15,045 nucleotides of DNA from Elusimicrobiota bacterium (GCA_027340875.1 DAIENX010000046.1:1-15045); one strand, 5' to 3'. Positions 291 to 14,822 are shown, numbered from the stretch's first letter. Program-made: numbers and translations. The notes: generated from the sequence alone by a model not told the origin.

Positions 291-1355
291 TCACGCCGAA
301 CTTTCGGGGGCCGGGAACCAGCCGCGCGTACGCACGCAGGCGGAGCAGACAGACAGCATCACCGGCACCTCCACCAGCACGCCCACCACGGTAGCCAGCG
401 CCGCGCCGGAGCCGGGGCCGAACAGCGCTATCGCCGTGGCGACGGCCAGTTCGAAGAAGTTGCTGGCCCCTATAAGCGCGCCTGGAGCGGCCACAGGGTA
501 TTCCACCTTGAACCTGCGCATCAGCCAGTAGACCAGGCCGGAGTTGAAGTAGACCTGCAGCGTTATCGGCACGGCTATCAGCAGCACGTGCGAGAAGCGG
601 GACGTGATGTTCTCCGCCTGGAAGGCGAAGATGAACACCAGCGTGGCCAGCAGGGCCAGCACGCTGACCGGGTGGAACTTCGGCATAAAGGCCGTCTCGA
701 ACCACTCTTTCCCGCGGGACCTGACCAGCGCCGCGCGCGTCAGCGCCCCGGCGGAGAGCGGGATCACGATGAAGATGAACACGGCCCACAGCAGCACGGA
801 GAAAGGCACCACCAGCGATGAGGCGCCGCTGACCAGGAACTTCACTATAGGCGCGAAGGCGGCCAGCATGATGAGGTCGTTCACCGCCACCTGCACCAGC
901 GTATAGGCCGGATCGCCGTCGGTCAGATAGCTCCAGACGAAGACCATGGCCGTGCATGGCGCGGCGGCCAGTATTATGACGCCGGCTATGTACTGCTCGG
1001 CCAGCTCGGGGCCTATCCACGGCGTGAAGACGTGCTTGAAGAAGACCCAGCCGAGCAGCGCCATACTGAACGGCTTCACCAGCCAGTTCACGAACAGCGT
1101 GATAAAAAGACCCTTGGGCTTTCTTCCGACGTTATGGAGCGAGCCGAAGTCTATCTTGAGCATCATCGGGTAGATCATCAGCCACAGCAGCACGGCTATC
1201 GGGATATTGATGTGCGACTCCGTGCCGAATTCCATGCGGCGCAGCCAGTCGACAACGCCGGGCGCCGCCTTGCCTATCAGGACTCCCACGGCCATGCAGG
1301 CGGCCACCCAGACCGTAAGGTACCGCTCGAAAACGTTCAGTCTCTTTTCGCTCAT
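291..1355 (-). CDS. acr3: Arsenite efflux transporter, Acr3 family (354 aa)
   Basis: Family motifs FERYLTVWV, LLWLMIYPMM, NWLVKPF, AAAPCTAMVFVW, GASNFFELAVA and VVGVLVEVPVML. Highly hydrophobic. 4-bp overlap with arsC. Confidence 0.96.
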   Translation of the reverse strand: MSEKRLNVFERYLTVWVAACMAVGVLIGKAAPGVVDWLRRMEFGTESHINIPIAVLLWLMIYPMMLKIDFGSLHNVGRKPKGLFITLFVNWLVKPFSMALLGWVFFKHVFTPWIGPELAEQYIAGVIILAAAPCTAMVFVWSYLTDGDPAYTLVQVAVNDLIMLAAFAPIVKFLVSGASSLVVPFSVLLWAVFIFIVIPLSAGALTRAALVRSRGKEWFETAFMPKFHPVSVLALLATLVFIFAFQAENITSRFSHVLLIAVPITLQVYFNSGLVYWLMRRFKVEYPVAAPGALIGASNFFELAVATAIALFGPGSGAALATVVGVLVEVPVMLSVCSACVRTRGWFPAPESSA

Positions 1356-1768
1356 ATCGCCAGTCCTTTCACGAATTCCTTTATCTCGTCGCGGACGCGG
1401 CGGTATACCGGCAGCGCGGCTTCGTCGGAGGCGCCCTTGCCCGCCACCGCGCCAGGGTCGTCGAAGCCCCGGTGGAGCTTTTTCCCCTTTCCCCAGTAGG
1501 CCGGGCAGGTCTTTTCGGCGTTGGAGCAGACCGTAACTACCAGATCGAATTCCATATCCTTTAACTCGGCCACGCCCTTAGGACGGTGGGAGGAAATATC
1601 TATCCCCGCCTCGTACATCACCCTTATCGCGCGGGTATCCACGGCATCCCCCGGCGCCGTGCCGGCGGAGAACGGCTCGACTTTGCCGCCAAGCAGCGCC
1701 CTGGCCCAGCCTTCCGCCATCTGGCTGCGGCACGAGTTGCCGGTGCAGAGAAAAAGTATCCTCTTCAT
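1352..1768 (-). CDS. arsC: Arsenate reductase, thioredoxin-coupled LMW-PTPase type (138 aa)
   Basis: P-loop CTGNSCRSQMAE, redox Cys pair VTVC...CP, and FDDP motif. Lies between arsR and acr3. Confidence 0.93.
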   Translation of the reverse strand: MKRILFLCTGNSCRSQMAEGWARALLGGKVEPFSAGTAPGDAVDTRAIRVMYEAGIDISSHRPKGVAELKDMEFDLVVTVCSNAEKTCPAYWGKGKKLHRGFDDPGAVAGKGASDEAALPVYRRVRDEIKEFVKGLAI

Positions 1769-2046
1769 TTTCCCCTCTTCAATGCCGGCAGCAGCCAGCT
1801 CAGCGCGGCCCGGCTTTCCCCCTTAGGCGAAGCCGGCAGCCTGCAATGCACCCAGCGGCCCAGCTTGCGCGTCTCTATCAGGCCGGCGGCCTCCAATATG
1901 GAGAGATGCTTGGAAACGGTGGAAGGAGCGAGTTTAAGCCCTTCGGTAACATGGCAGACGCAGAGCTCCCCCCGCTTGAGCAGCTTCAGTATCTTCAGGC
2001 GGGTCTCGTCGGCGGCCGCCTTGGTTATCCTCAGTATGTCCTGCAT
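1765..2046 (-). CDS. arsR: ArsR/SmtB family metalloregulatory repressor (93 aa)
   Basis: ADETRLKIL...ELCVCH...STVSKHLSILEAAGLI..RKLGRWV winged HTH with an alpha3 ELCVC metal-binding motif. First gene of the ars operon, 4-bp overlap with arsC. Confidence 0.92.
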   Translation of the reverse strand: MQDILRITKAAADETRLKILKLLKRGELCVCHVTEGLKLAPSTVSKHLSILEAAGLIETRKLGRWVHCRLPASPKGESRAALSWLLPALKRGK

Positions 2047-2061: not shown

Positions 2062-2088
2062 ATTTCGTCATTTCGCCACATAACGAAT
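2062..2088. promoter_or_regulatory. Candidate ArsR operator (imperfect inverted repeat)
   Basis: TTCGTCA (2064-2070) -N10- TAACGAA (2081-2087; reverse complement TTCGTTA), a 6/7 match. Also a direct repeat ATTTCG(T/C)CA at 2062-2070 and 2070-2078. Located in the arsR/hgcA spacer. Confidence 0.5.
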
Positions 2089-2092
2089 TATA
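2087..2092 (-). promoter_or_regulatory. -10 box (TATAAT) for arsR-arsC-acr3
   Basis: ATTATA on + reads TATAAT on -, 40 nt upstream of the arsR ATG. No strong -35 is evident. Confidence 0.6.
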
Positions 2093-2093
2093 C

Positions 2094-2099
2094 TATAAT
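2094..2099 (+). promoter_or_regulatory. -10 box (TATAAT) for hgcAB
   Basis: Perfect TATAAT followed by 7 nt and then ATG 2107. Only a weak -35 (TTTCGC, 2071-2076, 17-bp spacer). Confidence 0.6.
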
Positions 2100-2106
2100 A
2101 TCCTTC

Positions 2107-3087
2107 ATGACAGGGAAAGACAGCAGTACCGCCGCCGCGGCCGCCTCAGGCATTCCCTCCGTTACCCGGGAATACGGCCCGGCCGACCGGCTTGCCTCCT
2201 GGAAGGCCCGCTGGGGCATTGGCCGCATGAAGATGCGGATAAAGCCCGGCCTCTACGCGCTGGGCTCGCCGGGCCCGGACTCCCCGGTCTTCGCTTCCGC
2301 CAACTACAGGCTGAGCTTCGACGCTCTGCGCTCTTCGGTCAAGGACAACGCCTGGCTGCTGGTGCTGGACACCAAGGGCATCAACGTCTGGTGCGCGGCC
2401 GGCAAGGGCACTTTCGGCACTATGGAGCTTACCCGCTCCATAATGGAGAGCGGCCTGGAGAAACTGGTGGCCAGGAAGGAGATAATACTGCCCCAGCTGG
2501 GAGCTCCCGGAGTGGCCGCCCACAGGGTCAGCGCCTATACCGGCTTCAGGGTCGTCTACGGCCCAGTGCGCGCGGCGGATATTCCGGAATTCATGGCCGC
2601 CGGGAAAAAGGCCACTCCGGAGATGCGGCTGGTCCGCTTCGGCTTCGCTGACCGCGTCATCCTCTCCCCGCTCGAACTGGTCTATTTCGCCAAATTCCTG
2701 CTTCCGGCAGCGGCGCTGCTCTATTTCCTCGGCCTGAAAGCGGACGCGCTGCTGACCATCGCCACGCTTATTTCCGGAACCCTGCTGGTGCCAGCCCTGC
2801 TGCCCTGGCTGCCCGGCCGCGCATTCGCCGTAAAGAGCGCCGCCGCCGGGGCGCTCGCTCTCGCCGCGGTTTACCCCTTCCTTTCGCAGGACCTGCTGCA
2901 CGCCTGCGCCCGCGCGCTTATCTATCTGCCGGCGGCCTCGTTCATAGGACTGCAGTTCACCGGCACCTCCACCTACACCTCCCTCTCGGGGGTAATGAAG
3001 GAGATGCGGTTATCCCTGCCGGTACAGGCGGCGAGCCTGCTGGCCGGGATAGTACTGCTGGTACTGGGGGGGTTCCTATGGGCCTGA
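2107..3087 (+). CDS. hgcA: Mercury methylation corrinoid protein HgcA (326 aa)
   Basis: Cap-helix motif GINVWCAAGKGTFG (Cys codon TGC 2392-2394, residue 96), plus PGLYALG, ANYRLSFD, LPQLGAPGV, YGPVRAADI, and a C-terminal multi-TM domain with LPGRAFAVK and FTGTSTYTSLSGVMKEM. Followed by hgcB. Start set at ATG 2107 rather than 1846, which would overlap arsR. Confidence 0.97.
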   Translation: MTGKDSSTAAAAASGIPSVTREYGPADRLASWKARWGIGRMKMRIKPGLYALGSPGPDSPVFASANYRLSFDALRSSVKDNAWLLVLDTKGINVWCAAGKGTFGTMELTRSIMESGLEKLVARKEIILPQLGAPGVAAHRVSAYTGFRVVYGPVRAADIPEFMAAGKKATPEMRLVRFGFADRVILSPLELVYFAKFLLPAAALLYFLGLKADALLTIATLISGTLLVPALLPWLPGRAFAVKSAAAGALALAAVYPFLSQDLLHACARALIYLPAASFIGLQFTGTSTYTSLSGVMKEMRLSLPVQAASLLAGIVLLVLGGFLWA

Positions 3088-3374
3088 AATACCTGCGCGG
3101 TGTCTCCACGCTGAAGCTCGACGAGGCGAAGTGCACCGGCTGCGGAATGTGCGTGCAGGTCTGCCCTCACGCGGTGCTGGCGATGAACGGGCGGAAAGTC
3201 CGCATAACCGACATCGACCTCTGCATGGAATGCGGCGCCTGCGCCGGGAACTGTCCCGTAGAGGCGCTGAGCCTTAAGAAGGGCGTAGGGTGCGCCGCCG
3301 CCGTGATAACCGGCTTCATCAAGGGGACGGAACCGGTCTGCGGCTGCGGAGAGGGCGGGGACGACTGCTGCTGA
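3078..3374 (+). CDS. hgcB: Mercury methylation 2x[4Fe-4S] ferredoxin HgcB (98 aa)
   Basis: Two CxxCxxCxxxCP motifs (CTGCGMCVQVCP, CMECGACAGNCP), the HgcB signature C(M/I)ECGAC, conserved GVGCA and terminal CC. 10-bp overlap with hgcA. Confidence 0.96.
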   Translation: MGLKYLRGVSTLKLDEAKCTGCGMCVQVCPHAVLAMNGRKVRITDIDLCMECGACAGNCPVEALSLKKGVGCAAAVITGFIKGTEPVCGCGEGGDDCC

Positions 3375-3391
3375 GCGTATCTTTCCCGGAA

Positions 3392-3513
3392 ATGAACTCA
3401 CTCCCCGGGCTAAAGCCCGGAGTTTCCCGCATTGCAGAGAACTTGGCCTCCGCTTCGCTCCGGGCTGCCAGAAATCCCCGGCCTTAAAAGACCGGGGATT
3501 TCTGGCAAGTTTG
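3392..3513 (-). mobile_element. Non-autonomous IS200/IS605-family derivative (PATE/MITE-like), about 122 bp, no ORF
   Basis: Minus strand reads TTTAA|CAAACTTGCCAGAAAT-CCCCGGTCTTTTAAGGCCGGGG (left-end hairpin) ... GAAA-CTCCGGGCTTTAGCCCGGGGAG-TGAGTTCAT| (right-end hairpin). Subterminal hairpins, an AT-rich target 5' of the left end, and no target duplication. Confidence 0.65.
3466..3507. repeat. 16-bp perfect inverted repeat (left-end hairpin of the element)
   Basis: TGCCAGAAATCCCCGG (3466-3481) -ccttaaaaga- CCGGGGATTTCTGGCA (3492-3507). Confidence 0.95.
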
Positions 3514-3522
3514 TTAAAGGAT

Positions 3523-3548
3523 ACGCCGCCCCCTCCGGGCGGCGTTTT
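3523..3548 (+). terminator. Rho-independent terminator between convergent hgcAB and the ABC-F gene
   Basis: ACGCCGCCC-cctcc-GGGCGGCGT-TTT: a 9-bp stem with a short U-tract on + and a weaker tail on -. Confidence 0.7.
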
Positions 3549-5400: not shown

Positions 5401-6432
5401 CTACTTTTTGGCGCCGCCCAGGCCGGCGAGGTAGGCCTCCACCAGCCGCACCGTGGCGTTAAGGCCTTTTATGTGCGTGCGCTCCACTCCGTGCGAGGCC
5501 GAGACTCCGGGACCTATGACGGCCACGCGCACGTCGTAGCCGGCCCCGATGGCCGCGTGCGCGTCGGAGCCGTAATACGGGAAGATGTCCACCACGTGGG
5601 CGATCTTCTTCCTCTTCGCCAGGTTCACCAGCCGCTGGCGCAGCTCGTAGTCGTGCGGGCCGGTGGAATCCTTGGCGCAGATGGAGACCGCGGTCTCGTC
5701 CCCGTTCACCTCCCGCCCCACCACGCCCATGTCCACGGCCAGCATCTCCTTCACGCAGGCCGGTATGCCGGAACTGGCGCCGTGCCCGACCTCCTCGTAA
5801 TTGGAGAAAAAGAAGGCCGCGGGGACCTTCTTCAGGCGCGGCGCCGCCTTCAGGATGACCTCCGCCAGCACCGCGCAGCCGGCCTTGTCGTCCAGGAAGC
5901 GGGAGCGGATGAAGCCGGTGCCGGTGGCCTCGAAGCGCGGGTCGAAGAATACGTAATCCCCCGCGCCTATCCCCAGCTTCTTCACTGCCGCCGCCGTCTT
6001 CACCTCGGCGTCCAGCCTGATATGCATGTTGTCCGCGGAGCGTTCGGTCTTGCCGATGTTCCTGTTGACGTGGGCCGCCGGGTTGTCGCAGAGGAGCGTC
6101 CCGCGCCACTGCTTACCGGAGGAGCTGCGCACCGTCACGTATTCCCCCTCGAAAGAGTTCCACGGCCAGCCGCCTATCTGCGTGACGCGCAGCGTGCCGT
6201 CCCCCTCGATGCGCGTCACCATGGCCCCGAGCGTGTCCACGTGCGCCGCGCAAACGGCCAAGGGCTCCGGGTGCTCGCAGACGAGCAGCGCGCCCTTGTT
6301 GGTGATCTTCGGGGACAGGCCGGCGGCGCGGAATACCTCCGCCAGGAAATCTATCGCCTCGCGCGTATAGCCGCTGGGCGAGTTTATCGCCTCAAGCCCG
6401 CGCAGTATTTCCACTATTCCGGGTTCTTTCAT
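5401..6432 (-). CDS. M42 family metallo-aminopeptidase (343 aa)
   Basis: SPSGYT, AHVDTLG, RFLDDKAG, YEEVGHG, VDMG and SHGVER metal-ligand motifs. Strong SD AGGAGG upstream (about 6438-6443). Confidence 0.9.
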   Translation of the reverse strand: MKEPGIVEILRGLEAINSPSGYTREAIDFLAEVFRAAGLSPKITNKGALLVCEHPEPLAVCAAHVDTLGAMVTRIEGDGTLRVTQIGGWPWNSFEGEYVTVRSSSGKQWRGTLLCDNPAAHVNRNIGKTERSADNMHIRLDAEVKTAAAVKKLGIGAGDYVFFDPRFEATGTGFIRSRFLDDKAGCAVLAEVILKAAPRLKKVPAAFFFSNYEEVGHGASSGIPACVKEMLAVDMGVVGREVNGDETAVSICAKDSTGPHDYELRQRLVNLAKRKKIAHVVDIFPYYGSDAHAAIGAGYDVRVAVIGPGVSASHGVERTHIKGLNATVRLVEAYLAGLGGAKK

Positions 6433-6531: not shown

Positions 6532-6762
6532 CTAGCTCTTTACGGTGAAACCCTTGGTCTTAAGGACCGCCGCGACCTCCTCCAGGTCTATGCCCAGGCG
6601 CCCGCAGCCGGCGCGCACGGTCATCTGCTTGCCGTGGGACTCCCTCATCACGGGGTTCTTCACCCCCATGAAGCCCAGCGCGAAGAGTATGTCTATCAGC
6701 TCCGGGTAGTCCGTCGTCAGGTCGTACAGCGTCCTGTCCAGGTCCACGATCTTTGCGGCCAT
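6532..6762 (-). CDS. DUF1858 domain small protein (76 aa)
   Basis: Pattern DLDRTLYDL...YPELIDIL..LGF....NP.MR...GK.MT...G....GID. It lies 1 bp downstream of the DUF438 gene, the usual pairing. Confidence 0.75.
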   Translation of the reverse strand: MAAKIVDLDRTLYDLTTDYPELIDILFALGFMGVKNPVMRESHGKQMTVRAGCGRLGIDLEEVAAVLKTKGFTVKS

Positions 6763-6763
6763 A

Positions 6764-7921
6764 TCAGTCCACCAGCCTTTTTTCGCCTTTTATCTTCTGC
6801 AGCTCCGTTATATCCTGCGTCACTTCCAGGGAACCCAGGTATTTCCCTCCTTCGCCGCGCAGCGCGAAGTAGCGTATGTGTATCACCCTGCCCTTCATGT
6901 TTATCCAGAACTCCTCGAAGTTCTTCGTGCCGGTCCGGAAGCCGTTAAGTATCTTCTCGACGGCGGCCAGGCTCTTCGGCGGGTGGCAGTTCTGCACCTT
7001 TCGCCCTATCACCGACCGGGCCCGCAGGAAGATCCTGTCAGAGCCCTCGGAGAAATACCGCACGGTGTCGTCCGCGTCCACGAAGGTAAGGTCCACCGGC
7101 AGCGTGTTGAGCAGGGAGGTCAGCTCCCCCAGGGACAGGCTGCCGCTCGGCAGGCTTACCGCGGCCCCCGCGATAGAGGCGGTATTCTGGGCTATGTCCA
7201 GCGCCTCCATCGTTCCCGCCGGCGGCGGGATGAAGACGTAGCCGGTCTGCGCGCTCTCGCGGAAGATCTCGGCCCAGTCGGAGGCCTTCAGCTTCTCGAG
7301 GGAGGTCGGGAAAAGGATGTTCTCCTCCTTGAAGATCATCGCGTCTATCTCCTCCAGCAGCGCCAGCGCCGCGGCCGGGAAGTCCGCCGGGGAGGCCGAG
7401 GACGCTTTTTTGAACATCTCCCGGACCTCGTCGTGCTTGCCCCACATCACCTTGGAGGGCCCGTAGAAGCCGGCCTTCTCCAGGTACGGGAACAACAGGT
7501 GCTCCTTGCGCTCGTAATGTTTAATGACCGCCCGCAGTTCTTCCACTACGCTCCTCAGGCCGGCCGTGTCCCCGCCCGCCTTAATGCCGGGAAGCAGCGC
7601 CTTGCCCGCCTCGACGCGCTTCCTGATCTCGGCGTTCTCCGCCTTGAACAGCGCCACCGGGTGGGCCGGCGACTCCGGGTCGGCCATGTTCTTCTCCAGC
7701 GCCCCGTCGAACAGCAGCGCGTGCACGTTGCAGAAGCGCTTTATCTCGTCCGGAGTGACGCCGTCGGCCAGCAGCGACTGTTCCAGGTCGAAGATCTCCT
7801 GCGACGTGACGGGGCCTATCTCCGCCTCGAAGCGGTTCTTCGCCTCCGCGAGCGGCAGCCCCTTGTGCAGCTCGCCCAGTATCTCCTTCAGCGCCCTTTT
7901 TCTGTCAGGTCGTCCGCCCAT
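6764..7921 (-). CDS. DUF438 + hemerythrin-like + PAS (PAS_10) domain protein (385 aa)
   Basis: N-terminal LHKG...EI..LEQ.L...G....EI.RFCNVHA (DUF438). Central HPV..F..EN, HY.RKE.LLFP, MWGKHD and MIFKEENILFP (hemerythrin-like). C-terminal LPVDLTFVD..D.VRYF...RIF.R...IGRKVQNCHPP (PAS_10). Confidence 0.85.
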   Translation of the reverse strand: MGGRPDRKRALKEILGELHKGLPLAEAKNRFEAEIGPVTSQEIFDLEQSLLADGVTPDEIKRFCNVHALLFDGALEKNMADPESPAHPVALFKAENAEIRKRVEAGKALLPGIKAGGDTAGLRSVVEELRAVIKHYERKEHLLFPYLEKAGFYGPSKVMWGKHDEVREMFKKASSASPADFPAAALALLEEIDAMIFKEENILFPTSLEKLKASDWAEIFRESAQTGYVFIPPPAGTMEALDIAQNTASIAGAAVSLPSGSLSLGELTSLLNTLPVDLTFVDADDTVRYFSEGSDRIFLRARSVIGRKVQNCHPPKSLAAVEKILNGFRTGTKNFEEFWINMKGRVIHIRYFALRGEGGKYLGSLEVTQDITELQKIKGEKRLVD

Positions 7922-7930
7922 AGGTCCTCC

Positions 7931-8269
7931 TTACGCCTTTATCATTATCAGCGCCATCTTGAAGCGCTTGGCGGCCTTCAGCGCGTGCGGCCTGCGGGCC
8001 GGCATGATGATGAACTCGCCGGCCTTGACCCTGTGCGGCTTGCGGTCTATCAGTATCTCGGCCTCGCCGTCCAGAATCTCCACCATCGCGTCGAACGGAG
8101 CGGTATGCTCGGAAAGCCCCTGGCCCTTGTCGAAGGAGAAGATGGTCACTGTGCCCATCTGCTTCTGGATAATGGTCCGGCTCACCACCGCGTCCTTGTC
8201 GTAGGCGACCAGGTCCTTCGCCTTCAGGGTCCGGCCTGTCACGTCTTCCTTTTTTTCGATCCTTTTCAT
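7931..8269 (-). CDS. Cupin domain protein (112 aa)
   Basis: FSFDKGQGLSEHTAPFDA.V.ILDGEA...G....MPA..PHAL.A..FKM.L single cupin barrel. SD GGAGG at about 8274-8278. Confidence 0.85.
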   Translation of the reverse strand: MKRIEKKEDVTGRTLKAKDLVAYDKDAVVSRTIIQKQMGTVTIFSFDKGQGLSEHTAPFDAMVEILDGEAEILIDRKPHRVKAGEFIIMPARRPHALKAAKRFKMALIMIKA

Positions 8270-8277
8270 ACCGCCTC

Positions 8278-9381
8278 CTAGTTCAGCGTCTGTCTGAATC
8301 TGTTGTAGGCCAGCCCCGCGGCCGCGGCCGCCATCAGGGCCAGCGCCCCAATGTTCGCGAGGAACACGTGCATGTCCCCGCCTTTCAGCATGATATTGCG
8401 CAGCAGCCGCATGAAATACATCAGCGGGTCCAGGTAGGCCGCGGCTATTATGGCCGGCGGCATGTTCTCCACCGGGTACATGATGCCGCTCATCAGGATG
8501 GCCGGGAACAGGAACATGAAGCCGCCCAGCATCGACTGCTGCTGGCTGCGCGCTATCGAGGAGATGGAGGTACCTATGCTGACCGTGGTTATCACGAAGA
8601 CGAACGCCGCGGCGGCGAACTGCCAGAGCGGCCCGCGCACCGGCACGCCGAAGACCAGCCAGGCCGCCGTCATCACCAGCGCGGCCACGACGAGTCCGAG
8701 CAGGATGAACGGCAGCGTCTTGCCGATCAGGATCTCGGCGTTGGTCAACGGGGCCGAGACTATGGTCTCGAAGGTGCCCATCTCGCGCTCGCGCGTCAGC
8801 GACATGGCCGTCAGGATTATCGTTATCAGGCAGATGACCATGCTCATCACTCCGGGCACCAGGAACAGCGCGGACTCCATGGCCGGGTTGTAGAGCACGC
8901 GCACGTCGAAGGAAAGAGGAGACGGAGGCCCCGCCCCGTATTCCCGCCTGAGGAAAGCCGCCAGGATATTACGGGAATAAGCCTCTATCACCCTGCCCTT
9001 CGTGGCGTTCGAGGCGTCCACCAGCAGCTGCAGCTTTCCCGCCCCCCTGGCCGCGGCCCGGCCCAGCCCGTCCTTAGGCGTTATCAGCACCGCGTCGACC
9101 CGGCCGGAGGTTATCAGCTCGTAAGGGTCCTCCGAAGGCGAGAAGGAGGCCGGTTTGAACCAGCCGGAGGAGTAAAAGCCTTCCGCCAGCCTTTCGCAGG
9201 CGGCGTCGCCGGGCCGGCTGAAGACTGCCAGCTTTATGTTCTTTATCTCCGTGGAGAGAGCCAGGCCGAAGACGGTCATCTGTATGACCGGGGCGCCGAA
9301 CAGCAGCGCGCGCATGCGCACGTCGCGCAGCGTCTGCCGCAGCTCCTTCTTTATGAACGCCCTCAGCGTCGGGGTCATCAT
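8278..9381 (-). CDS. ABC-2 type permease, YbhR-like (367 aa)
   Basis: KKELRQTLRD, LYNP, FLVPG, REREMGTFE...P....EILIGKTLPF and SGIMYPVENMP motifs. Confidence 0.9.
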   Translation of the reverse strand: MMTPTLRAFIKKELRQTLRDVRMRALLFGAPVIQMTVFGLALSTEIKNIKLAVFSRPGDAACERLAEGFYSSGWFKPASFSPSEDPYELITSGRVDAVLITPKDGLGRAAARGAGKLQLLVDASNATKGRVIEAYSRNILAAFLRREYGAGPPSPLSFDVRVLYNPAMESALFLVPGVMSMVICLITIILTAMSLTREREMGTFETIVSAPLTNAEILIGKTLPFILLGLVVAALVMTAAWLVFGVPVRGPLWQFAAAAFVFVITTVSIGTSISSIARSQQQSMLGGFMFLFPAILMSGIMYPVENMPPAIIAAAYLDPLMYFMRLLRNIMLKGGDMHVFLANIGALALMAAAAAGLAYNRFRQTLN

Positions 9382-10487
9382 GGTTCCAGGTCCGTCTTGA
9401 ACTTTTCCAACGCCAGCGTCAGCAGCAGCAGGCTGAGAACGGTGAGCGCGAGGAAAGGCACGGCGAGCTCCCTAAGCCCGGCGCCTTTAAGATAGATCCC
9501 GCGCGCGGCCGCCATGAACCAGCGCGGCGGCAGTATCATAGTGAAATACCTGAAAAAGGCCGGCATGCTCTCCACGGGGAAGATAAAGCCGGACAGCAGC
9601 ATGCTGGGGAGCAGCCCCGTTATCATGGAGAACTGCATGGCCACCTGCTGCTGGCGGGTCGCCACCGAGATGAACAGTCCCTGCGACAGCGCGGCCACTA
9701 TGAACAGCACGCAGGCCAGCAGGAACAACAGATGGGAACCGGCGAACGGCACGCCGAACACCAGCCGCGAGGCGAGGTAGACGAAGAAGACGCCGATCAG
9801 CACCAACAGGCCGTACGGCGCCAGCTTCCCGATGATTATCTCCATAGGGCGCACCGGCGTGGAGAGCAGCAGTTCCATGGAGCCGTTCTCCCATTCCCTG
9901 GCCACCGTAAGCGCGGTGAGAAGGATGGCCAGCAGTCCTATGATTATAGCGGCCAGGCCCGGTATGGTGAACCAGCGGCTGTTGAGCTCGGGATTGTAGA
10001 GGAACCTGGTTTCGAGGCTCAAAGGCGCAGCGGGGCGCGCGCCGGCGAGGCGGGCGGAGGCGGCCGTCTGTATGCCGGGCAGGTAGCCCATCATCACCGC
10101 GGCTTTCGAGTTGTCGCTGCCGTCTATGACGAACTGCGCCCCGGCGGGCTTGCCGGAGCCGAGGTCCCTGGAGAAGCCCGGCTTGATGAAAAGCGCAGCG
10201 GCCGCTTCGCCGGAGTCCAGCATCTCCACGGGGTCCGCCGACGGCGTCAGCCGGAAATAGCCGGAGGCGGAGAAGATCTCCTGCAGGCGGCGCGCGGCCG
10301 GGCCGTTGTCCCGGTCGGAGACCGCGAGCGAGAGGTTCTTCACCTCGAAATCTATAGCGTAGCCGAAGAAAGTGACCAGCATCACCGGCAGCCCCAGCGC
10401 CAGGGCGAGAGTGAACGGGTCGCGCAGGACGTGCATGACCTCCTTGCGCGCGACCGACCAGGCCCTGTGGACGTTGAAAGCGCTCAT
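9378..10487 (-). CDS. ABC-2 type permease, YbhS-like (369 aa)
   Basis: RKEVMHVLRD, FGYAI, IDGSD, LYNPEL.SRWF.IPG, AREWENGSME.LL.TP and LSGFIFP..SMP motifs. Confidence 0.9.
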   Translation of the reverse strand: MSAFNVHRAWSVARKEVMHVLRDPFTLALALGLPVMLVTFFGYAIDFEVKNLSLAVSDRDNGPAARRLQEIFSASGYFRLTPSADPVEMLDSGEAAAALFIKPGFSRDLGSGKPAGAQFVIDGSDNSKAAVMMGYLPGIQTAASARLAGARPAAPLSLETRFLYNPELNSRWFTIPGLAAIIIGLLAILLTALTVAREWENGSMELLLSTPVRPMEIIIGKLAPYGLLVLIGVFFVYLASRLVFGVPFAGSHLLFLLACVLFIVAALSQGLFISVATRQQQVAMQFSMITGLLPSMLLSGFIFPVESMPAFFRYFTMILPPRWFMAAARGIYLKGAGLRELAVPFLALTVLSLLLLTLALEKFKTDLEP

Positions 10488-11407
10488 CGCTCCCTCCCCT
10501 CCACCAGCCGTATGAACACATCCTCGAGGGAAGGCTTTATCGCCCTGCGGGAAACGCCGGCGGGCAGGCCCGCCAGGGCCTCCTCCATTGAGACGGTATC
10601 AGCGAACGCGGCGTGCCAGCGCATGCCGTGCGGCGACAGCTCCAGCAGGCCGCGCGCGTCCTTCAGCCCGCGCAGGAAGCCTTCGGGGGCCGGCCCGTTG
10701 AAGTCCAGCTCCGCCATCGGCCCGGGGAACGCGGAAGCCTTGAGCTCGTCCGGCGAGCCCAGCGCTATCAGCCTGCCGGTGCGCATCAGGGCTATGCGGC
10801 CGCACTGCTCCGCCTCGTCCATGTAATGCGTGGTCACTATCACCGTCTTGCCGAGCGCGGTGACCTTGCGTATCAGCGCCCAGAACCTGGCGCGCGCGAC
10901 CGGGGCCACTCCGGAGGTCGGCTCGTCGAGAAACACTATCTCGGGGTCGTGCAGCATGGCCGCGGCCAGCGCCAGCTCCTGTTTTATGCCGCCGGGCAGC
11001 GAGCGGACCATGGTCGAGAGCGGCCTGTCGAAGCCCGTCAGCTCGAAGAGCTCTTTCCTGCGCTTGCGGGCGTAGGCGGTGTCCAGTTTCCGCAGGCCGG
11101 CAGCGAAGTCCAGGTTCTCCCCGACAGTGAGGTCGTTGTAGAGGGTGAACTTCTGGGACATGTAGCCCACGATGCCTTTTATCGCCCTGCCTCCGTCGGA
11201 AAAATCCAGGCCGCCCACAGTGGCCGCACCCGAGGTGGGGACCAGCAGGCCGCAGAGCATGCGTATCGTGGTGGTCTTGCCGGCTCCGTTGGCCCCGAGG
11301 AAGCCGAAGATCTCCCCCTTGTTGACGCAGAAGGAGACATGGTCCACGGCGGTGAAGTCGCCGAACTTTATGGAGAGGCCCTTTACCTCGAGGGCGCAGG
11401 AGCTCAT
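10484..11407 (-). CDS. ABC transporter ATP-binding protein (similar to the YbhF C-terminal half, 307 aa)
   Basis: FGDFTAVD, GEIFGFLGANGAGKTT, GYMSQKF, degenerate signature LPGG, FLDEPTSG and TTHYMDEAE. Start moved to ATG 11407 (ATGA overlap with the upstream stop, SD-like AGGGGG). Confidence 0.9.
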   Translation of the reverse strand: MSSCALEVKGLSIKFGDFTAVDHVSFCVNKGEIFGFLGANGAGKTTTIRMLCGLLVPTSGAATVGGLDFSDGGRAIKGIVGYMSQKFTLYNDLTVGENLDFAAGLRKLDTAYARKRRKELFELTGFDRPLSTMVRSLPGGIKQELALAAAMLHDPEIVFLDEPTSGVAPVARARFWALIRKVTALGKTVIVTTHYMDEAEQCGRIALMRTGRLIALGSPDELKASAFPGPMAELDFNGPAPEGFLRGLKDARGLLELSPHGMRWHAAFADTVSMEEALAGLPAGVSRRAIKPSLEDVFIRLVEGRER

Positions 11408-12123
11408 CTCGCCGCCCCCTTTATGAATATCTCCTCGAAGCTGGAGGCGCCGGCCTCCCTCAGCACGGTCCGGGGCTTGCCGGAAGCCAGCAGGCGGCCC
11501 GATTCCAGCAGGTGCACGCGGGAACAGCGCTCGGCCTCGTCCATGTACGCCGTGGAGACCACTATCAGTATCTTCCGCTCCGCCAGCCCGTAGAGCAGCT
11601 CCCAGAACTCGCGGCGGCTGATGGGGTCCACGCCGTTGGTGGGTTCGTCGAGCAGCAGCGCCGCCGGGGACTGCAGCAGCGCGCACATAAGCCCGAGCTT
11701 CTTGTACATGCCGCCGGAGAGCTGGCCGGCCCTGCGCTCCCTGAACTTGCCCAGCCTCGTTATCTCCAGCAATTCGGCGGAGCGCTTTTTGTACTCCTCA
11801 GGAGAGAGGCGGTAAAGCTCGCGGAAGAACTCCAGGTGTTCGCTGACCGAGAGGTCCGGGTAGAGGCTGGCCTGCTGCGGCATGTAGGCCAGTACCGGCC
11901 GCACCTCCCCCAGCGGCTTCTCCGTCCCGTCGAGGAAATAACGTATATGCCCGACTGACGGACGCAGCAGCCCGGCCAGCAGGCGCATCGTGGTGGTCTT
12001 GCCTGCCCCGTCCGAACCTATCAGGCCGTGCAGCAGGCCGGCGGAAAAGTCGAAGGAGACCCCGTCCAGCGCCCTGGCGCGGCCGAAGTATTTCTTCAGC
12101 CCTTCCGTACGTATCGAGTACAT
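11404..12123 (-). CDS. ABC transporter ATP-binding protein (similar to the YbhF N-terminal half, 239 aa)
   Basis: GLIGSDGAGKTT, YMPQ, LSGGM, LLDEPTNGVDP.SRREFW and STAYMDEAE. Confidence 0.9.
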   Translation of the reverse strand: MYSIRTEGLKKYFGRARALDGVSFDFSAGLLHGLIGSDGAGKTTTMRLLAGLLRPSVGHIRYFLDGTEKPLGEVRPVLAYMPQQASLYPDLSVSEHLEFFRELYRLSPEEYKKRSAELLEITRLGKFRERRAGQLSGGMYKKLGLMCALLQSPAALLLDEPTNGVDPISRREFWELLYGLAERKILIVVSTAYMDEAERCSRVHLLESGRLLASGKPRTVLREAGASSFEEIFIKGAAR

Positions 12124-12124
12124 G

Positions 12125-12847
12125 TCAGTCCGGCAGCTTTACCTCTAGGGTCATGCCCGGCTTCAGCGCGCCGTCGGGGTTCGGGAAGGAGACCTTCACC
12201 GCGAACACCAGGCGCGTGCGCTCTTTGCGCGTCTGCACGTTCTTCGGAGTGAACTCCGCCTCCGGGTAGATGACGGAGATCCTCCCTCTGTACTCCCTGT
12301 CCGCCGCCTCCGGCAGGTACCCGCTCACCTCCATGCCGGTGCTGATCCTGGCCAGCATGTCGTGCGGCACGTAGATGTATTCCCAGACCTCGGAGAGGTC
12401 GGCCACGGTTGCCAGCCTGGTGCCCGGCGCGACCAGCTCGCCCTTCTCGTGGTAGGAATAGAGCAGCCTGCCGTCCACCGGGGACTTGATAGCGCACCAG
12501 TCCACCTTCAGCGCGGAATCGTCGCGCCGGTACTTCAGGCGGTCGTAGCTTTCTTTCGAGGCTGATCCAGACTTGTATAGTTCCGCCGCCCTTTTGAAGT
12601 CGTCGTCCGCTATGCCGGCGGCCAGTCTCAGGTCGGCGCAGTCGAGAGCGGCTATGACCTGCCCCTTCTTCACGCTCTCGCCCTCTTTCGCGCCGTAGCG
12701 CTCTATGACACCGGGGATGCGGGCGGAGAGGTCCGTCTCCGTAGCCTCGATGGTGCCAGCGTAGCGGAAAGCCCCGTTGTTCCTCATCTTCAGCAGGACG
12801 AGGGAGCCGACCACCGCTATTATCAATACAGGTATTTTCTTCTTCAT
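12125..12847 (-). CDS. HlyD-family membrane fusion protein, YbhG-like (240 aa)
   Basis: N-terminal anchor, GTIEA, EGE.V.KGQ lipoyl-like half motif, I.SP.DG, and AEFTPKNVQT..ER..LVF.VK...LKPGM. Confidence 0.88.
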   Translation of the reverse strand: MKKKIPVLIIAVVGSLVLLKMRNNGAFRYAGTIEATETDLSARIPGVIERYGAKEGESVKKGQVIAALDCADLRLAAGIADDDFKRAAELYKSGSASKESYDRLKYRRDDSALKVDWCAIKSPVDGRLLYSYHEKGELVAPGTRLATVADLSEVWEYIYVPHDMLARISTGMEVSGYLPEAADREYRGRISVIYPEAEFTPKNVQTRKERTRLVFAVKVSFPNPDGALKPGMTLEVKLPD

Positions 12848-12849
12848 GT

Positions 12850-14196
12850 TCAGTTCACGCTCCCGGTAAGGCTGTCCAGCACCGCCAGTTTCAGAAGTAT
12901 CTCGGCGTTAGCGGACGCGGCGGTGGTCTTGGCCTGCAGCTCCTTCAAGTTGGCGCTCTCCACCTCCAGCCAGGTCAGGCTGCCGGCCTTGTACGCCTCG
13001 TAGGCCAGTTTCGCCGCGGCGGACGCATCGTCCACCGCGTCTATATTTATGGACTGCTCCTCCATCAACGCCGAATAATCGTCCAGCGCCGAGTAGTATT
13101 CGCGGGCCGCGGCGCGGGCGGCCTCGTCCCGGCGCTCCTCCGCGGCCTGCGCGTTCAGCAGGCTTTCCTTTTCCCGCTCCCCCAGCCGCCCCTTCTCGAA
13201 CAGCGGCATGCTCAGCGAAAGCCCCGCGTAGTTCTGCAGGAAGGAGTACAGGTTCGGCCCGTTCGGATAGTCTACCGAGCTGCGCGCGGTAAACGTTACG
13301 CGCGGCAGCTTCTCCGCCTTGTAGGCCCCGGCGGAAGCCCTGAACGCCCTGCCGTTCTCCTCCAGCGCCAGCACGGCCGGCTGGGAGGCGCCCAGCTCCC
13401 GCTCGGCCGCGGGCAGCAGGCGGGGCAGGATGTCCAGGTACGACTCCGCGCCCACCACCAGCCCGGCGAACGTATCGCCCGCGTAGTCGTGGCCGGCCAT
13501 CCTGGAATCTATCGGCAGCCCCGCTCCGGCCGGCGGCTCGATCCCGGTCACGAAAGAGAATTCCTTTATCACGTCGGCCAGCGCCGCGCGCGCGCGCAGC
13601 AGGTCCCTGCGGCGCTCGGTGACCTCCTGCCTGGCCCTGATGCCGTCCAGCCGGCTGCGGGTGCCGGCCTTCACGCCGGCCTCCACGTCGGAGAGCTGGC
13701 TCAGGGAGAGTTGCAGGTTCTCCGCTATGAGATAGACCTTCTCGAGCGCCAGCTGAAGCCGGAAATAGGCCGAGCGGGCCGACAGCAACGCCTGTCTGCG
13801 GGCCGCCTCCTCTTCCTCGGTGCGCGCCGCGGCCAGCCGGCCGGCGGCCTCGCGGCCGTAGCGCAGGGCCCCGGCGTCCAGCGTCCAGTAGGCGGTCGGG
13901 CCTAGGGAATAGCCCCAGTTGTCGCCCAGCGGCTTCGCCCCGCCCATTACCGCGGGCAGCGATATCTCCGGGATCACCGCCGTATATCTGAGAGCGCCTT
14001 CCAGGCTCAGGCGCGGGTAAAGAAGGCTGGAGGCGGCCGCCTGGGCGGCCCTGGCGGCCCCGGCGGAAAGCCTGGCCGCGCGGTACTGCCCGGAACGGGC
14101 CAGCGCGCCGTCCTCGGAGGCCTTCAGGGACACCCTGAACTCCACGGCGCCAGCGGGCACGGATAAAGTAAGGAATATAATAAGCAGCTTCTTCAC
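12850..14196 (-). CDS. TolC-family outer membrane efflux protein (448 aa)
   Basis: Signal peptide MKKLLIIFLTLSVPAGA from GTG 14196 (GTGA overlap with the tetR stop). YPRLSL, KLPRV, GLSLSMPLF and AYEAYKAG.....LEV repeats typical of the OEP fold. Confidence 0.82.
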   Translation of the reverse strand: MKKLLIIFLTLSVPAGAVEFRVSLKASEDGALARSGQYRAARLSAGAARAAQAAASSLLYPRLSLEGALRYTAVIPEISLPAVMGGAKPLGDNWGYSLGPTAYWTLDAGALRYGREAAGRLAAARTEEEEAARRQALLSARSAYFRLQLALEKVYLIAENLQLSLSQLSDVEAGVKAGTRSRLDGIRARQEVTERRRDLLRARAALADVIKEFSFVTGIEPPAGAGLPIDSRMAGHDYAGDTFAGLVVGAESYLDILPRLLPAAERELGASQPAVLALEENGRAFRASAGAYKAEKLPRVTFTARSSVDYPNGPNLYSFLQNYAGLSLSMPLFEKGRLGEREKESLLNAQAAEERRDEAARAAAREYYSALDDYSALMEEQSINIDAVDDASAAAKLAYEAYKAGSLTWLEVESANLKELQAKTTAASANAEILLKLAVLDSLTGSVN

Positions 14197-14822
14197 AGGC
14201 CCACCCCCCTGAGAGCTATTTCGGCCCGCTCGGCTATGCCTTCCTCGGAGAAGACCTCGTTCATCACGCTCTTCAGCGGCGTGCCGGAAAGCATTTTGAC
14301 CCCGTTGCGCTCCATGATGCCGCCTACGATCACCGGGAATACCATGACCGGCAGCAGCGCGGCCACCATGTAAGGCACGGAACGCCCCTTCAGGGCGCTG
14401 GCCTGACGGCATTCGGCGGCCAGCAGGGCCACCTGCATCACATGCTCGGTGAAGTTGCCGCTGAAGAAGTCGAAGGCCTCCTTCTTGCCCTGCGCCAGGT
14501 CCGAGAAGATCATCGGCGCCGCCTTGCGTATGCCTATAGCGAAGCGGGCCACTTCCACCAGCGCGTTCTTGAGCCTTTCCCGCGGCGTGCCGGCGGCGGA
14601 TACCCCCGCCTTGAAATGTAGCATAAATTCCGCGTACATTTCCTTCATCACGGCCTTCACGAACTCGTCCTTGGATCCGAAATAATAACGGAACATCGCG
14701 GGATTAACGCCGGCCAGGCGACAGGCCTCCCGCAGGCTGAAGCCGGTCAGCCCTTTTTCCTGTATCAGGCGCCTGCCGGCAGCCTTGAGCTTTACGTCCG
14801 TCCCTGACGGGGGTCTTGCCAT
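14193..14822 (-). CDS. TetR/AcrR family transcriptional regulator (CecR/YbiH-like context, 209 aa)
   Basis: N-terminal HTH KG.TGFSLRE.C..AGVN.AM..YYFGSKD. First gene of the efflux operon. SD AAGGAG. Confidence 0.9.
   Translation of the reverse strand: MARPPSGTDVKLKAAGRRLIQEKGLTGFSLREACRLAGVNPAMFRYYFGSKDEFVKAVMKEMYAEFMLHFKAGVSAAGTPRERLKNALVEVARFAIGIRKAAPMIFSDLAQGKKEAFDFFSGNFTEHVMQVALLAAECRQASALKGRSVPYMVAALLPVMVFPVIVGGIMERNGVKMLSGTPLKSVMNEVFSEEGIAERAEIALRGVGL

Follow-up and report, generated by a model that had tools for sequence, protein, structure and literature searches.

The hgcAB locus and its neighbours

The window, i.e. the whole stretch of 15 045 nucleotides that was analysed, is the entire contig C40 of a 2.8-Mb Elusimicrobiota genome (92.45% complete, 5.49% contamination). 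Two adjacent genes, hgcA and hgcB, overlap by 10 bp (3078-3087) and lie head-to-head with an arsR-arsC-acr3 operon, with 60 bp between the two start codons. The features of this region are collected in Table 1.

Table 1. Coordinates of the genes and predicted elements of the hgcAB region in the window.
Feature	Position	Strand	Description
acr3 arsenite efflux transporter	291..1355	-	354 aa; TIGR00832 379.1 bits (cut-off 282.8)
arsC-like arsenate reductase	1352..1768	-	138 aa; LMW-PTPase fold; PF01451; TIGR02691 117.8 bits, below cut-off 174.3
arsR-family repressor	1765..2046	-	93 aa; NF033788 86.2 bits (cut-off 55)
Imperfect 10-8-10 palindrome	2062..2089	.	likely operator of the type B ArsR, from conservation and co-occurrence
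TATAAT box toward arsR	2087..2092	-	predicted -10; unchanged in 5/5 aligned loci
TATAAT box toward hgcA	2094..2099	+	predicted -10; 7 nt before ATG; no Shine-Dalgarno
hgcA, corrinoid methyltransferase	2107..3087	+	326 aa; NF040863, predicted helices and Foldseek
Cap-helix motif NVWCAAGK	2383..2406	+	residues 93-100 of HgcA
hgcB, 2x[4Fe-4S] ferredoxin	3078..3374	+	98 aa; NF040864 119.3 bits (cut-off 99)
136-bp stretch with 20-bp inverted repeat (3466-3507)	3388..3523	.	likely small insertion; hairpin z -6.0
9-bp GC-rich hairpin with short T tail	3523..3545	+	possible terminator; between the converging hgcB and uup-like genes

The start of hgcA was placed at 2107 because the match to the HgcA model NF040863 begins at residue 16 of the resulting protein and because an ATG located 7-8 nt past the TATAAT box is conserved in 5/5 aligned loci. 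A simple gene caller proposed 2227, a start that was discarded since both the HMM match and the conserved ATG are upstream of it. A longer frame from 1846 would overlap arsR in antisense and was also rejected. The TATAAT box lies 7 nt ahead of the ATG, a Shine-Dalgarno motif is lacking, and the hgcA start is likely leaderless.

Further along the window, the genes at 8278-14822 (minus strand; TetR-TolC-HlyD-two ABC ATPases-two ABC-2 permeases) form an ordinary efflux operon. DUF1858, DUF438-hemerythrin-PAS and cupin genes stand in a row at 6532-8269 (minus strand) and recur beside the ars island in relatives. The plus-strand reading of 5401-6432 (MKEPG...) is a 343-aa open reading frame with no Pfam or NCBIfam match. 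The gene caller puts the coding frame on the minus strand, so these blank scans may have been run on the wrong strand. The 343-aa translation resembles an M42-type metallo-aminopeptidase. The Rfam search gave no match within the window.

Identity of HgcA and HgcB

In a profile search, the product of 2107-3087 reached 384.6 bits with NF040863 (cut-off 275), and HgcB also exceeded the curated cut-off of its own model. The codon for Cys96, the predicted cobalt ligand, occupies 2392-2394. Residues N93, V94, W95, C96, A97, A98 and K100 do not vary across 93 aligned HgcA sequences, which were themselves chosen by the NVWCAAGK motif. Cys96 corresponds to Cys93 of Pseudodesulfovibrio mercurii ND132, named as required in the text of PMC7305189. 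The AlphaFold2 model of HgcA, computed from the 93 sequences, has a mean pLDDT of 92.2 and predicts five C-terminal membrane helices (187-207, 211-234, 240-258, 263-287 and 293-325), in agreement with hydropathy. Foldseek ranks the deposited HgcAB model 9a0b first (E 3.5e-19, 40% identity), followed by CFeSP chains. HgcB carries two CxxCxxCxxxCP motifs at residues 19 and 49, the second of which reads CMECGACAGNCP. Its further cysteines are Cys72 within GVGC, Cys88, Cys90 and the terminal pair Cys97-Cys98. Cys72 and Cys97/98 have Cys73 and Cys94/95 as ND132 counterparts, which passages of PMC7305189 and PMC11588087 name as needed.

The pair could alternatively be an AcsC/CdhE-like or fused HgcAB-like paralogue accompanied by a generic ferredoxin, and thus not a methylator. 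It is true that Pfam assigns the two products to CdhD and Fer4 and nothing more specific, and that the relatives retrieved by a PDB sequence search are CFeSP chains alone. However, both specific models are over cut-off, whereas HgcA stays under those of the fused HgcAB-like proteins (NF043039, 188.1 bits for a cut-off of 285, the pair being two separate ORFs) and of AcsC/CdhE (70.7 bits for a cut-off of 306, the match being confined to model positions 322-447). HgcB is encoded by a gene of its own and has Cys72 as well as the terminal cysteine pair, and HgcA has its membrane domain. These observations make the paralogue explanation extremely improbable. In the HgcA tree, which comprises 109 rows and has no AcsC or fused outgroup, the window protein is nested among HgcA of many phyla. 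Eleven near-duplicate loci were omitted from this tree and a length filter removed frameshifted or cut loci. The nearest named HgcA loci are mostly Elusimicrobia records (65-71% identity).

The preliminary description had reported a complete hgcAB pair with an intact cap helix around Cys96, a membrane domain, a 10-bp overlap and an HgcB with two 4Fe-4S motifs, GVGC and a terminal CC. Coordinates, frames and motifs were all confirmed, and every known essential cysteine is present in both proteins, in keeping with the view that the genes are intact. Its warning that automated pipelines mislabel the pair as a CdhD-like protein plus a ferredoxin holds for Pfam but not for current NCBIfam, which names both genes. 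Positions 2107-3374 are almost certainly a true hgcAB pair, whose products would very probably be able to methylate mercury.

Host genome and source

The host encodes a MetK over cut-off and ten B12-binding domains, including IcmF and lysine aminomutase over cut-off, whereas its BtuF/BtuC-like genes and TonB receptor remain below cut-off. Cobalamin riboswitches were seen at two host loci, one with the TonB receptor (C72) and one with the BtuF/BtuC-like genes (C58). The cobS gene was not found in this 92.45% complete genome, and HgcAB activity would thus depend on scavenged cobalamin. With the sequence tests passed, and with metK, enzymes that depend on cobalamin and a likely uptake system for B12 in the host, the earlier designation of this organism as a methylmercury producer stands as a prediction. 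A [FeFe]-hydrogenase was not found in the same 92.45% complete genome, and the sole heme-copper oxidase hit is a NorB/qNOR-like protein of 754 aa. A merB profile search of the host gave no match, and neither did its control profiles.

A mis-binned contig was considered and is unlikely: its GC content is 64.7% versus 63.6% for the genome, an MFS gene continues on contig C50 and the flanks are syntenic in relatives. In keeping with a host that is probably an Elusimicrobiota, five of seven hgcA loci from this phylum have flanking proteins that match the genome at up to 80-87%. Four DNA runs from one study, labelled 'mine drainage metagenome', contain 83-92% of the sampled words of the stretch and are possibly its source. 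Among the sequencing runs listed as containing the stretch there is no RNA run.

Downstream of hgcB

A terminator of its own had also been attributed to the pair. A strict scan detected no convincing terminator behind hgcB, and what is left of this claim is a possible one, the 3523-3545 hairpin, which has a z of -3.1 and was equalled in stability by 1 of 200 shuffles. Between this hairpin and hgcB, contigs of four runs join position 3387 to 3524 with 15 other letters, and the short form is also found in genome G023. The 3466-3507 hairpin was rejected both as the hgcAB terminator and as a genome-wide repeat: it has a single further weak copy in the genome, on contig C66, and is missing from related contigs.

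The divergent ArsR and its predicted operator

The window ArsR, designated type B, carries Cys29-x-Cys31 within ELCVCH, plus Cys68. ELCVCH and WVHC are conserved in 4/4 full-length type B proteins. The protein heads arsC/acr3 and possesses two of the three alpha-3 cysteines of the R773 ArsR; its inducer is not certain because one of them is missing. Among the 26 full-length hgcA loci of the family, 24 have an arsR gene immediately next to hgcA in head-to-head orientation, which encodes a type A ArsR (128 aa) in 19 and type B in five. The two loci without a directly adjacent arsR are the first copy of G008 and that of G101. A third ArsR clade is found at the head of an arsP-arsE-arsF-arsG operon, and each of the three clades is preceded by a palindrome of its own. 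That of the third clade is conserved and located inside a TTGACA-type promoter ahead of the arsP operon.

The two exceptional genomes differ in their layout. G008 has two hgcAB copies from different sub-clades, one with a type A palindrome and no adjacent arsR, the other with a type B module. In G101 (contig C15), a TAG stands close to the end of hgcA and hgcB follows after a gap of about 300 bp; neither ars genes in the vicinity nor an acr3 in the genome were detected.

The 2062-2089 palindrome was not reported by a repeat search over the window, its arms being imperfect. Its pattern has a single site in the host genome, even allowing one mismatch. Five of the 80 family genomes have it, in every case in the gap separating arsR from hgcA; the reversed control gave no occurrence. 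The block 2064-2100 is near-invariant among the five type B family loci while the flanks diverge. A metagenome scan returned 12 matches, nine just ahead of arsR and three without a recognised neighbour. Since most of the metagenome matches sit ahead of arsR, the palindrome appears to track the type B ArsR with or without hgcAB.

The boxes on its hgcA side behave differently. An hgcA-facing box (TATAAT or TACAAT) is present in 8/8 hgcA-linked type B loci (five family genomes, G429 and two metagenome contigs) versus 0/7 arsR loci without hgcA, and the double TATAAT box occurs once in the genome. At the centre of the type A palindrome, an extended -10-like TGc-TA[T/G]TAT faces hgcA in 21/21 hgc-linked sites, whereas an A replaces its first T in 7/7 sites without hgcA (five genomes); this count omits two arsM loci with a type A arsR that have no exact pattern match. 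The compared loci are kin, the family HgcA being one clade, so that a small number of events may underlie the 21-versus-7 and 8-versus-7 splits. Two unrelated repressor-operator pairs nonetheless both put the hgcA promoter onto the operator. Regarding the promoter formerly assigned to hgcAB alone, this comparative evidence backs the TATAAT at 2094-2099. A consensus promoter scan, on the other hand, performed at chance level, with one promoter-like site versus 0.5 +/- 0.7 by chance and a poor -35 for hgcA. The promoter is probably not exclusive to the pair, as it adjoins a likely ArsR operator common to hgcAB and the divergent ars operon.

The palindrome could instead serve ArsR autoregulation alone, next to a constitutive hgcAB promoter that is simply adjacent. 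Palindromes do precede arsR without hgcAB (seven metagenome loci and five genomes), and hgcA expression was initially thought to be constitutive according to passages of PMC11984097. Yet the palindrome lies just 17 bp ahead of the hgcA start codon and would be overlapped by a sigma-70 polymerase sitting on the 2094-2099 box. Moreover, the overlap of operator and promoter is repeated with a different repressor and operator in the type A loci. Autoregulation alone is accordingly rather unlikely, and hgcAB is probably under the control of the adjacent ArsR. The most plausible picture of the locus is that of a complete hgcAB pair in a predicted mercury methylator, with one ArsR operator that would repress transcription in both directions.

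Alternation of hgcAB and arsM in the ars island

The hgcA gene is over cut-off in 25 of the 80 family genomes, including G003 (frameshift) and G101 (stop near the end), and in 27 of 401 genomes drawn from the phylum. For arsM, 28 of the 80 exceed the NF008823 cut-off. The two are found together in a single genome, G035, which is 63% complete and has two arsM copies. Two further arsM-positive genomes contain a partial hgcA, truncated by a contig end in G098 and by an internal deletion in G004. Among acr3-positive genomes, arsM is present in 1/24 with hgcA versus 27/37 without, and ten have neither gene.

In relatives devoid of hgcA, the same chromosomal place is occupied by an ars island with the order arsR-arsP-arsE-arsF-arsG-(arsR_A)-arsM-(hesB)-arsC-acr3. 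In hgc-positive genomes, the interval between arsG and arsC contains a reversed hgcAB, arsR_A and hesB, and arsM is found in 0/26 hgc loci. An IscA/HesB-like Fe-S carrier gene lies between arsR and arsC (e.g. L107:1097-1405), and a PhnD-like binding-protein gene often follows acr3. The IscA/HesB-like gene was discarded as an hgcB-specific partner: it is found in 19/26 hgc loci but also in 9/28 arsM loci, and is absent from the window. Degraded copies were observed as well. On contig C305 of G004, all that remains of hgcA is its last ~70 codons, right behind an intact type A palindrome, hgcB being kept and arsM located elsewhere. The hgcA genes of G003 (contig C93, near residue 46-49) and of locus L280 are apparently frameshifted.

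A ribosomal-protein tree was built for 61 of the 80 genomes, leaving aside two without an rplB hit and 17 of genera without hgcA. On this tree, hgc and arsM each change 15 times. In 13 independent pairs differing in hgc, with G004 and G098 set aside, arsM differed in the opposite direction in 8.0 and in the same direction in 0.3 (median p 0.008). With acr3-positive genomes only, the counts are 8.5 versus 0.0 (p 0.004). If the three distant ArsM-like domains of hgc-positive genomes are included, the test weakens to p 0.039, and to 0.07 if G098 is also treated as hgc-positive. Species relatedness is accounted for by the pair test; replacement within one slot is not.

The family HgcA proteins form one clade (support 99; 28 rows, including one sister-family genome and one metagenome contig), and the hgcAB tree deviates from the species tree. 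The arsC and acr3 genes group by species rather than by cassette, e.g. in all seven genomes of genus g17. The single hgcA clade, together with arsC and acr3 following the species, suggests that hgcAB was acquired once and that the central piece was then repeatedly swapped or reciprocally lost.

The alternation may then be purely mechanical, with cassettes having common flanks swapped by recombination, or with arsM lost once from the hgc haplotype. This would imply no functional link to arsM and would be compatible with shared ArsR control. The single well-supported HgcA clade agrees with it, as do the grouping of arsC and acr3 by species, which leaves only the central piece changing, and the discordance between hgcAB and species trees, with G008 having two copies. 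However, none of the five type B loci has arsM either, and their HgcA proteins occupy separate places in the clade. In addition, the order arsR_A-arsM-hesB (G007, G096, G009) could accommodate both genes and still 0/26 hgc islands contain arsM. We give the mechanical explanation an even chance.

A second explanation is functional. HgcAB would stand in for ArsM as an arsenic-controlled SAM-dependent methyltransferase that methylates arsenic or transforms it in another way, mercury methylation being a side reaction. The sharing of one genome only by hgcA and arsM, their common position in the arsG-arsC interval of one island and the opposite behaviour of arsM in the independent pairs are all in its favour. 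So are the use of SAM by HgcAB (text of PMC11588087) and the higher As(V) sensitivity of the ND132 knockout (passages of bioRxiv 10.1101/2022.10.17.512643). According to the same passages, however, neither mono- nor dimethylarsenicals were formed by ND132 when As(III) or As(V) was supplied, with 20-30% of the arsenic unrecovered, and the As(III) sensitivity of the knockout was not increased. Outside the island, three hgcA-positive genomes also have a distant ArsM-like domain, scoring 189-192 bits for a cut-off of 263. In G253, from another family of the phylum, arsR-hgcA-hgcB is followed by an ArsM-like gene with a sub-cut-off score of 243 bits. An hgcAB next to arsM is described for other taxa in passages of PMC7438021, and the ten acr3-positive genomes with neither gene fit poorly as well. 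Substitution for ArsM is consequently doubtful. Equally doubtful is the broader proposal that HgcAB took over both the slot and the regulator of arsM, with arsenic handling as the selected function and methylmercury as a by-product. The alternation within ars islands nonetheless hints at an arsenic-related role of hgcAB. Other native roles have been put forward in passages of the literature, namely halomethane dehalogenation (bioRxiv 10.64898/2026.04.26.720869) and the use of methylmercury as an antimicrobial (PMC10083202).

The ArsM-like sequences mentioned above have particular contexts. The three distant domains (G030, G014 and G006) lie within open frames of ~500-750 aa, and the arsR-hgcA-hgcB-ArsM-like unit of G253 (contig C11; NF008823 cut-off 263) is encoded on the same strand.

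Putative regulation, chemistry and history

When bound at 2062-2089, ArsR would cover its own transcript start and, in the hgcA promoter, both the spacer and the -35 region. It would be released once As(III) binds to Cys29/Cys31, and arsenic efflux and hgcAB would be switched on together. The proposed chemistry is taken from published work on ND132 and assumed to carry over. The two [4Fe-4S] clusters of HgcB would keep the cobalamin of membrane-bound HgcA reduced, SAM would methylate the cobalt ligated by Cys96, and the methyl group would pass to Hg(II) held on the HgcB cysteines Cys72 and Cys97/98. SAM would be supplied by MetK and cobalamin by uptake. As for its history, the family may have taken up hgcAB once, into the ars-island slot that arsM fills in relatives. 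The pair would thereafter have stayed coupled to an ArsR via two different repressor-operator modules.

The pair itself is one more predicted methylator on a known list, and its value lies in its context. It has long been asked what makes microbes retain hgcAB. In this family the question can be approached by a natural comparison, as close relatives harbour either hgcAB or arsM at the same slot and the 60-bp region with its predicted operator is delimited. Should hgcAB be induced by arsenic here, methylmercury production by these organisms could increase in arsenic-rich anoxic waters.

Comparison with known systems

It is already known that hgcAB occurs in Elusimicrobia and that it is linked to ArsR and to ars genes. 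Passages of PMC7438021 and PMC11984097 describe MAGs in which hgcAB is flanked by acr3, arsC, arsM or arsR, and list Elusimicrobia among hgcA-positive groups; hgcA in Elusimicrobia also appears in passages of bioRxiv 10.1101/2020.03.10.983866. In a lake, hgcA genes preceded by arsR had lower hgcA/gyrB ratios (text of PMC11984097). The text passages of PMC7438021 and PMC11984097 describe these MAGs without operator, orientation or hgcAB/arsM alternation. Searches of the open literature, figures and supplements aside, gave no report of this alternation or of this operator. The head-to-head layout, the located and predicted shared operator across two repressor types and the alternation with arsM may thus be new. 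Among 80 hgcA loci from many taxa, an arsR within ~900 bp is co-directional in 21 and divergent in eight, seven of the latter being close Elusimicrobia-type loci.

The window HgcAB closely resembles that of P. mercurii ND132 as described in passages of PMC7305189 and PMC11588087. Both have a cap-helix cysteine, five membrane helices, two CxxCxxCxxxCP motifs, a lone cysteine ~12 residues after the motifs, a terminal cysteine pair and adjacent genes. The differences are that the window host is an uncultured Elusimicrobiota, that its hgcA start is likely leaderless and that its activity is predicted.

The ArsR of the Escherichia coli plasmid R773 shares with the window ArsR two alpha-3 cysteines with CxC spacing, which are said to suffice for arsenic binding in passages of bioRxiv 10.1101/2022.10.17.512643. 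The window protein differs from it by the lack of the third alpha-3 cysteine and has a conserved Cys68 in the wing instead. The passages of that preprint also report that the ND132 hgcAB is under the control of an ArsR-like regulator and that the hgcA transcript level does not predict the methylation rate. The ND132 arsR2-hgcAB and the window are alike in having an ArsR-family gene beside hgcAB with control proposed or shown. In these passages, arsR2 is upstream of and co-transcribed with hgcAB, has its four cysteines outside helix alpha-3 and has no adjoining ars genes. By contrast, the window arsR is divergent, codes for a CxC motif in alpha-3, heads arsC-acr3 and has a predicted operator shared with hgcAB.
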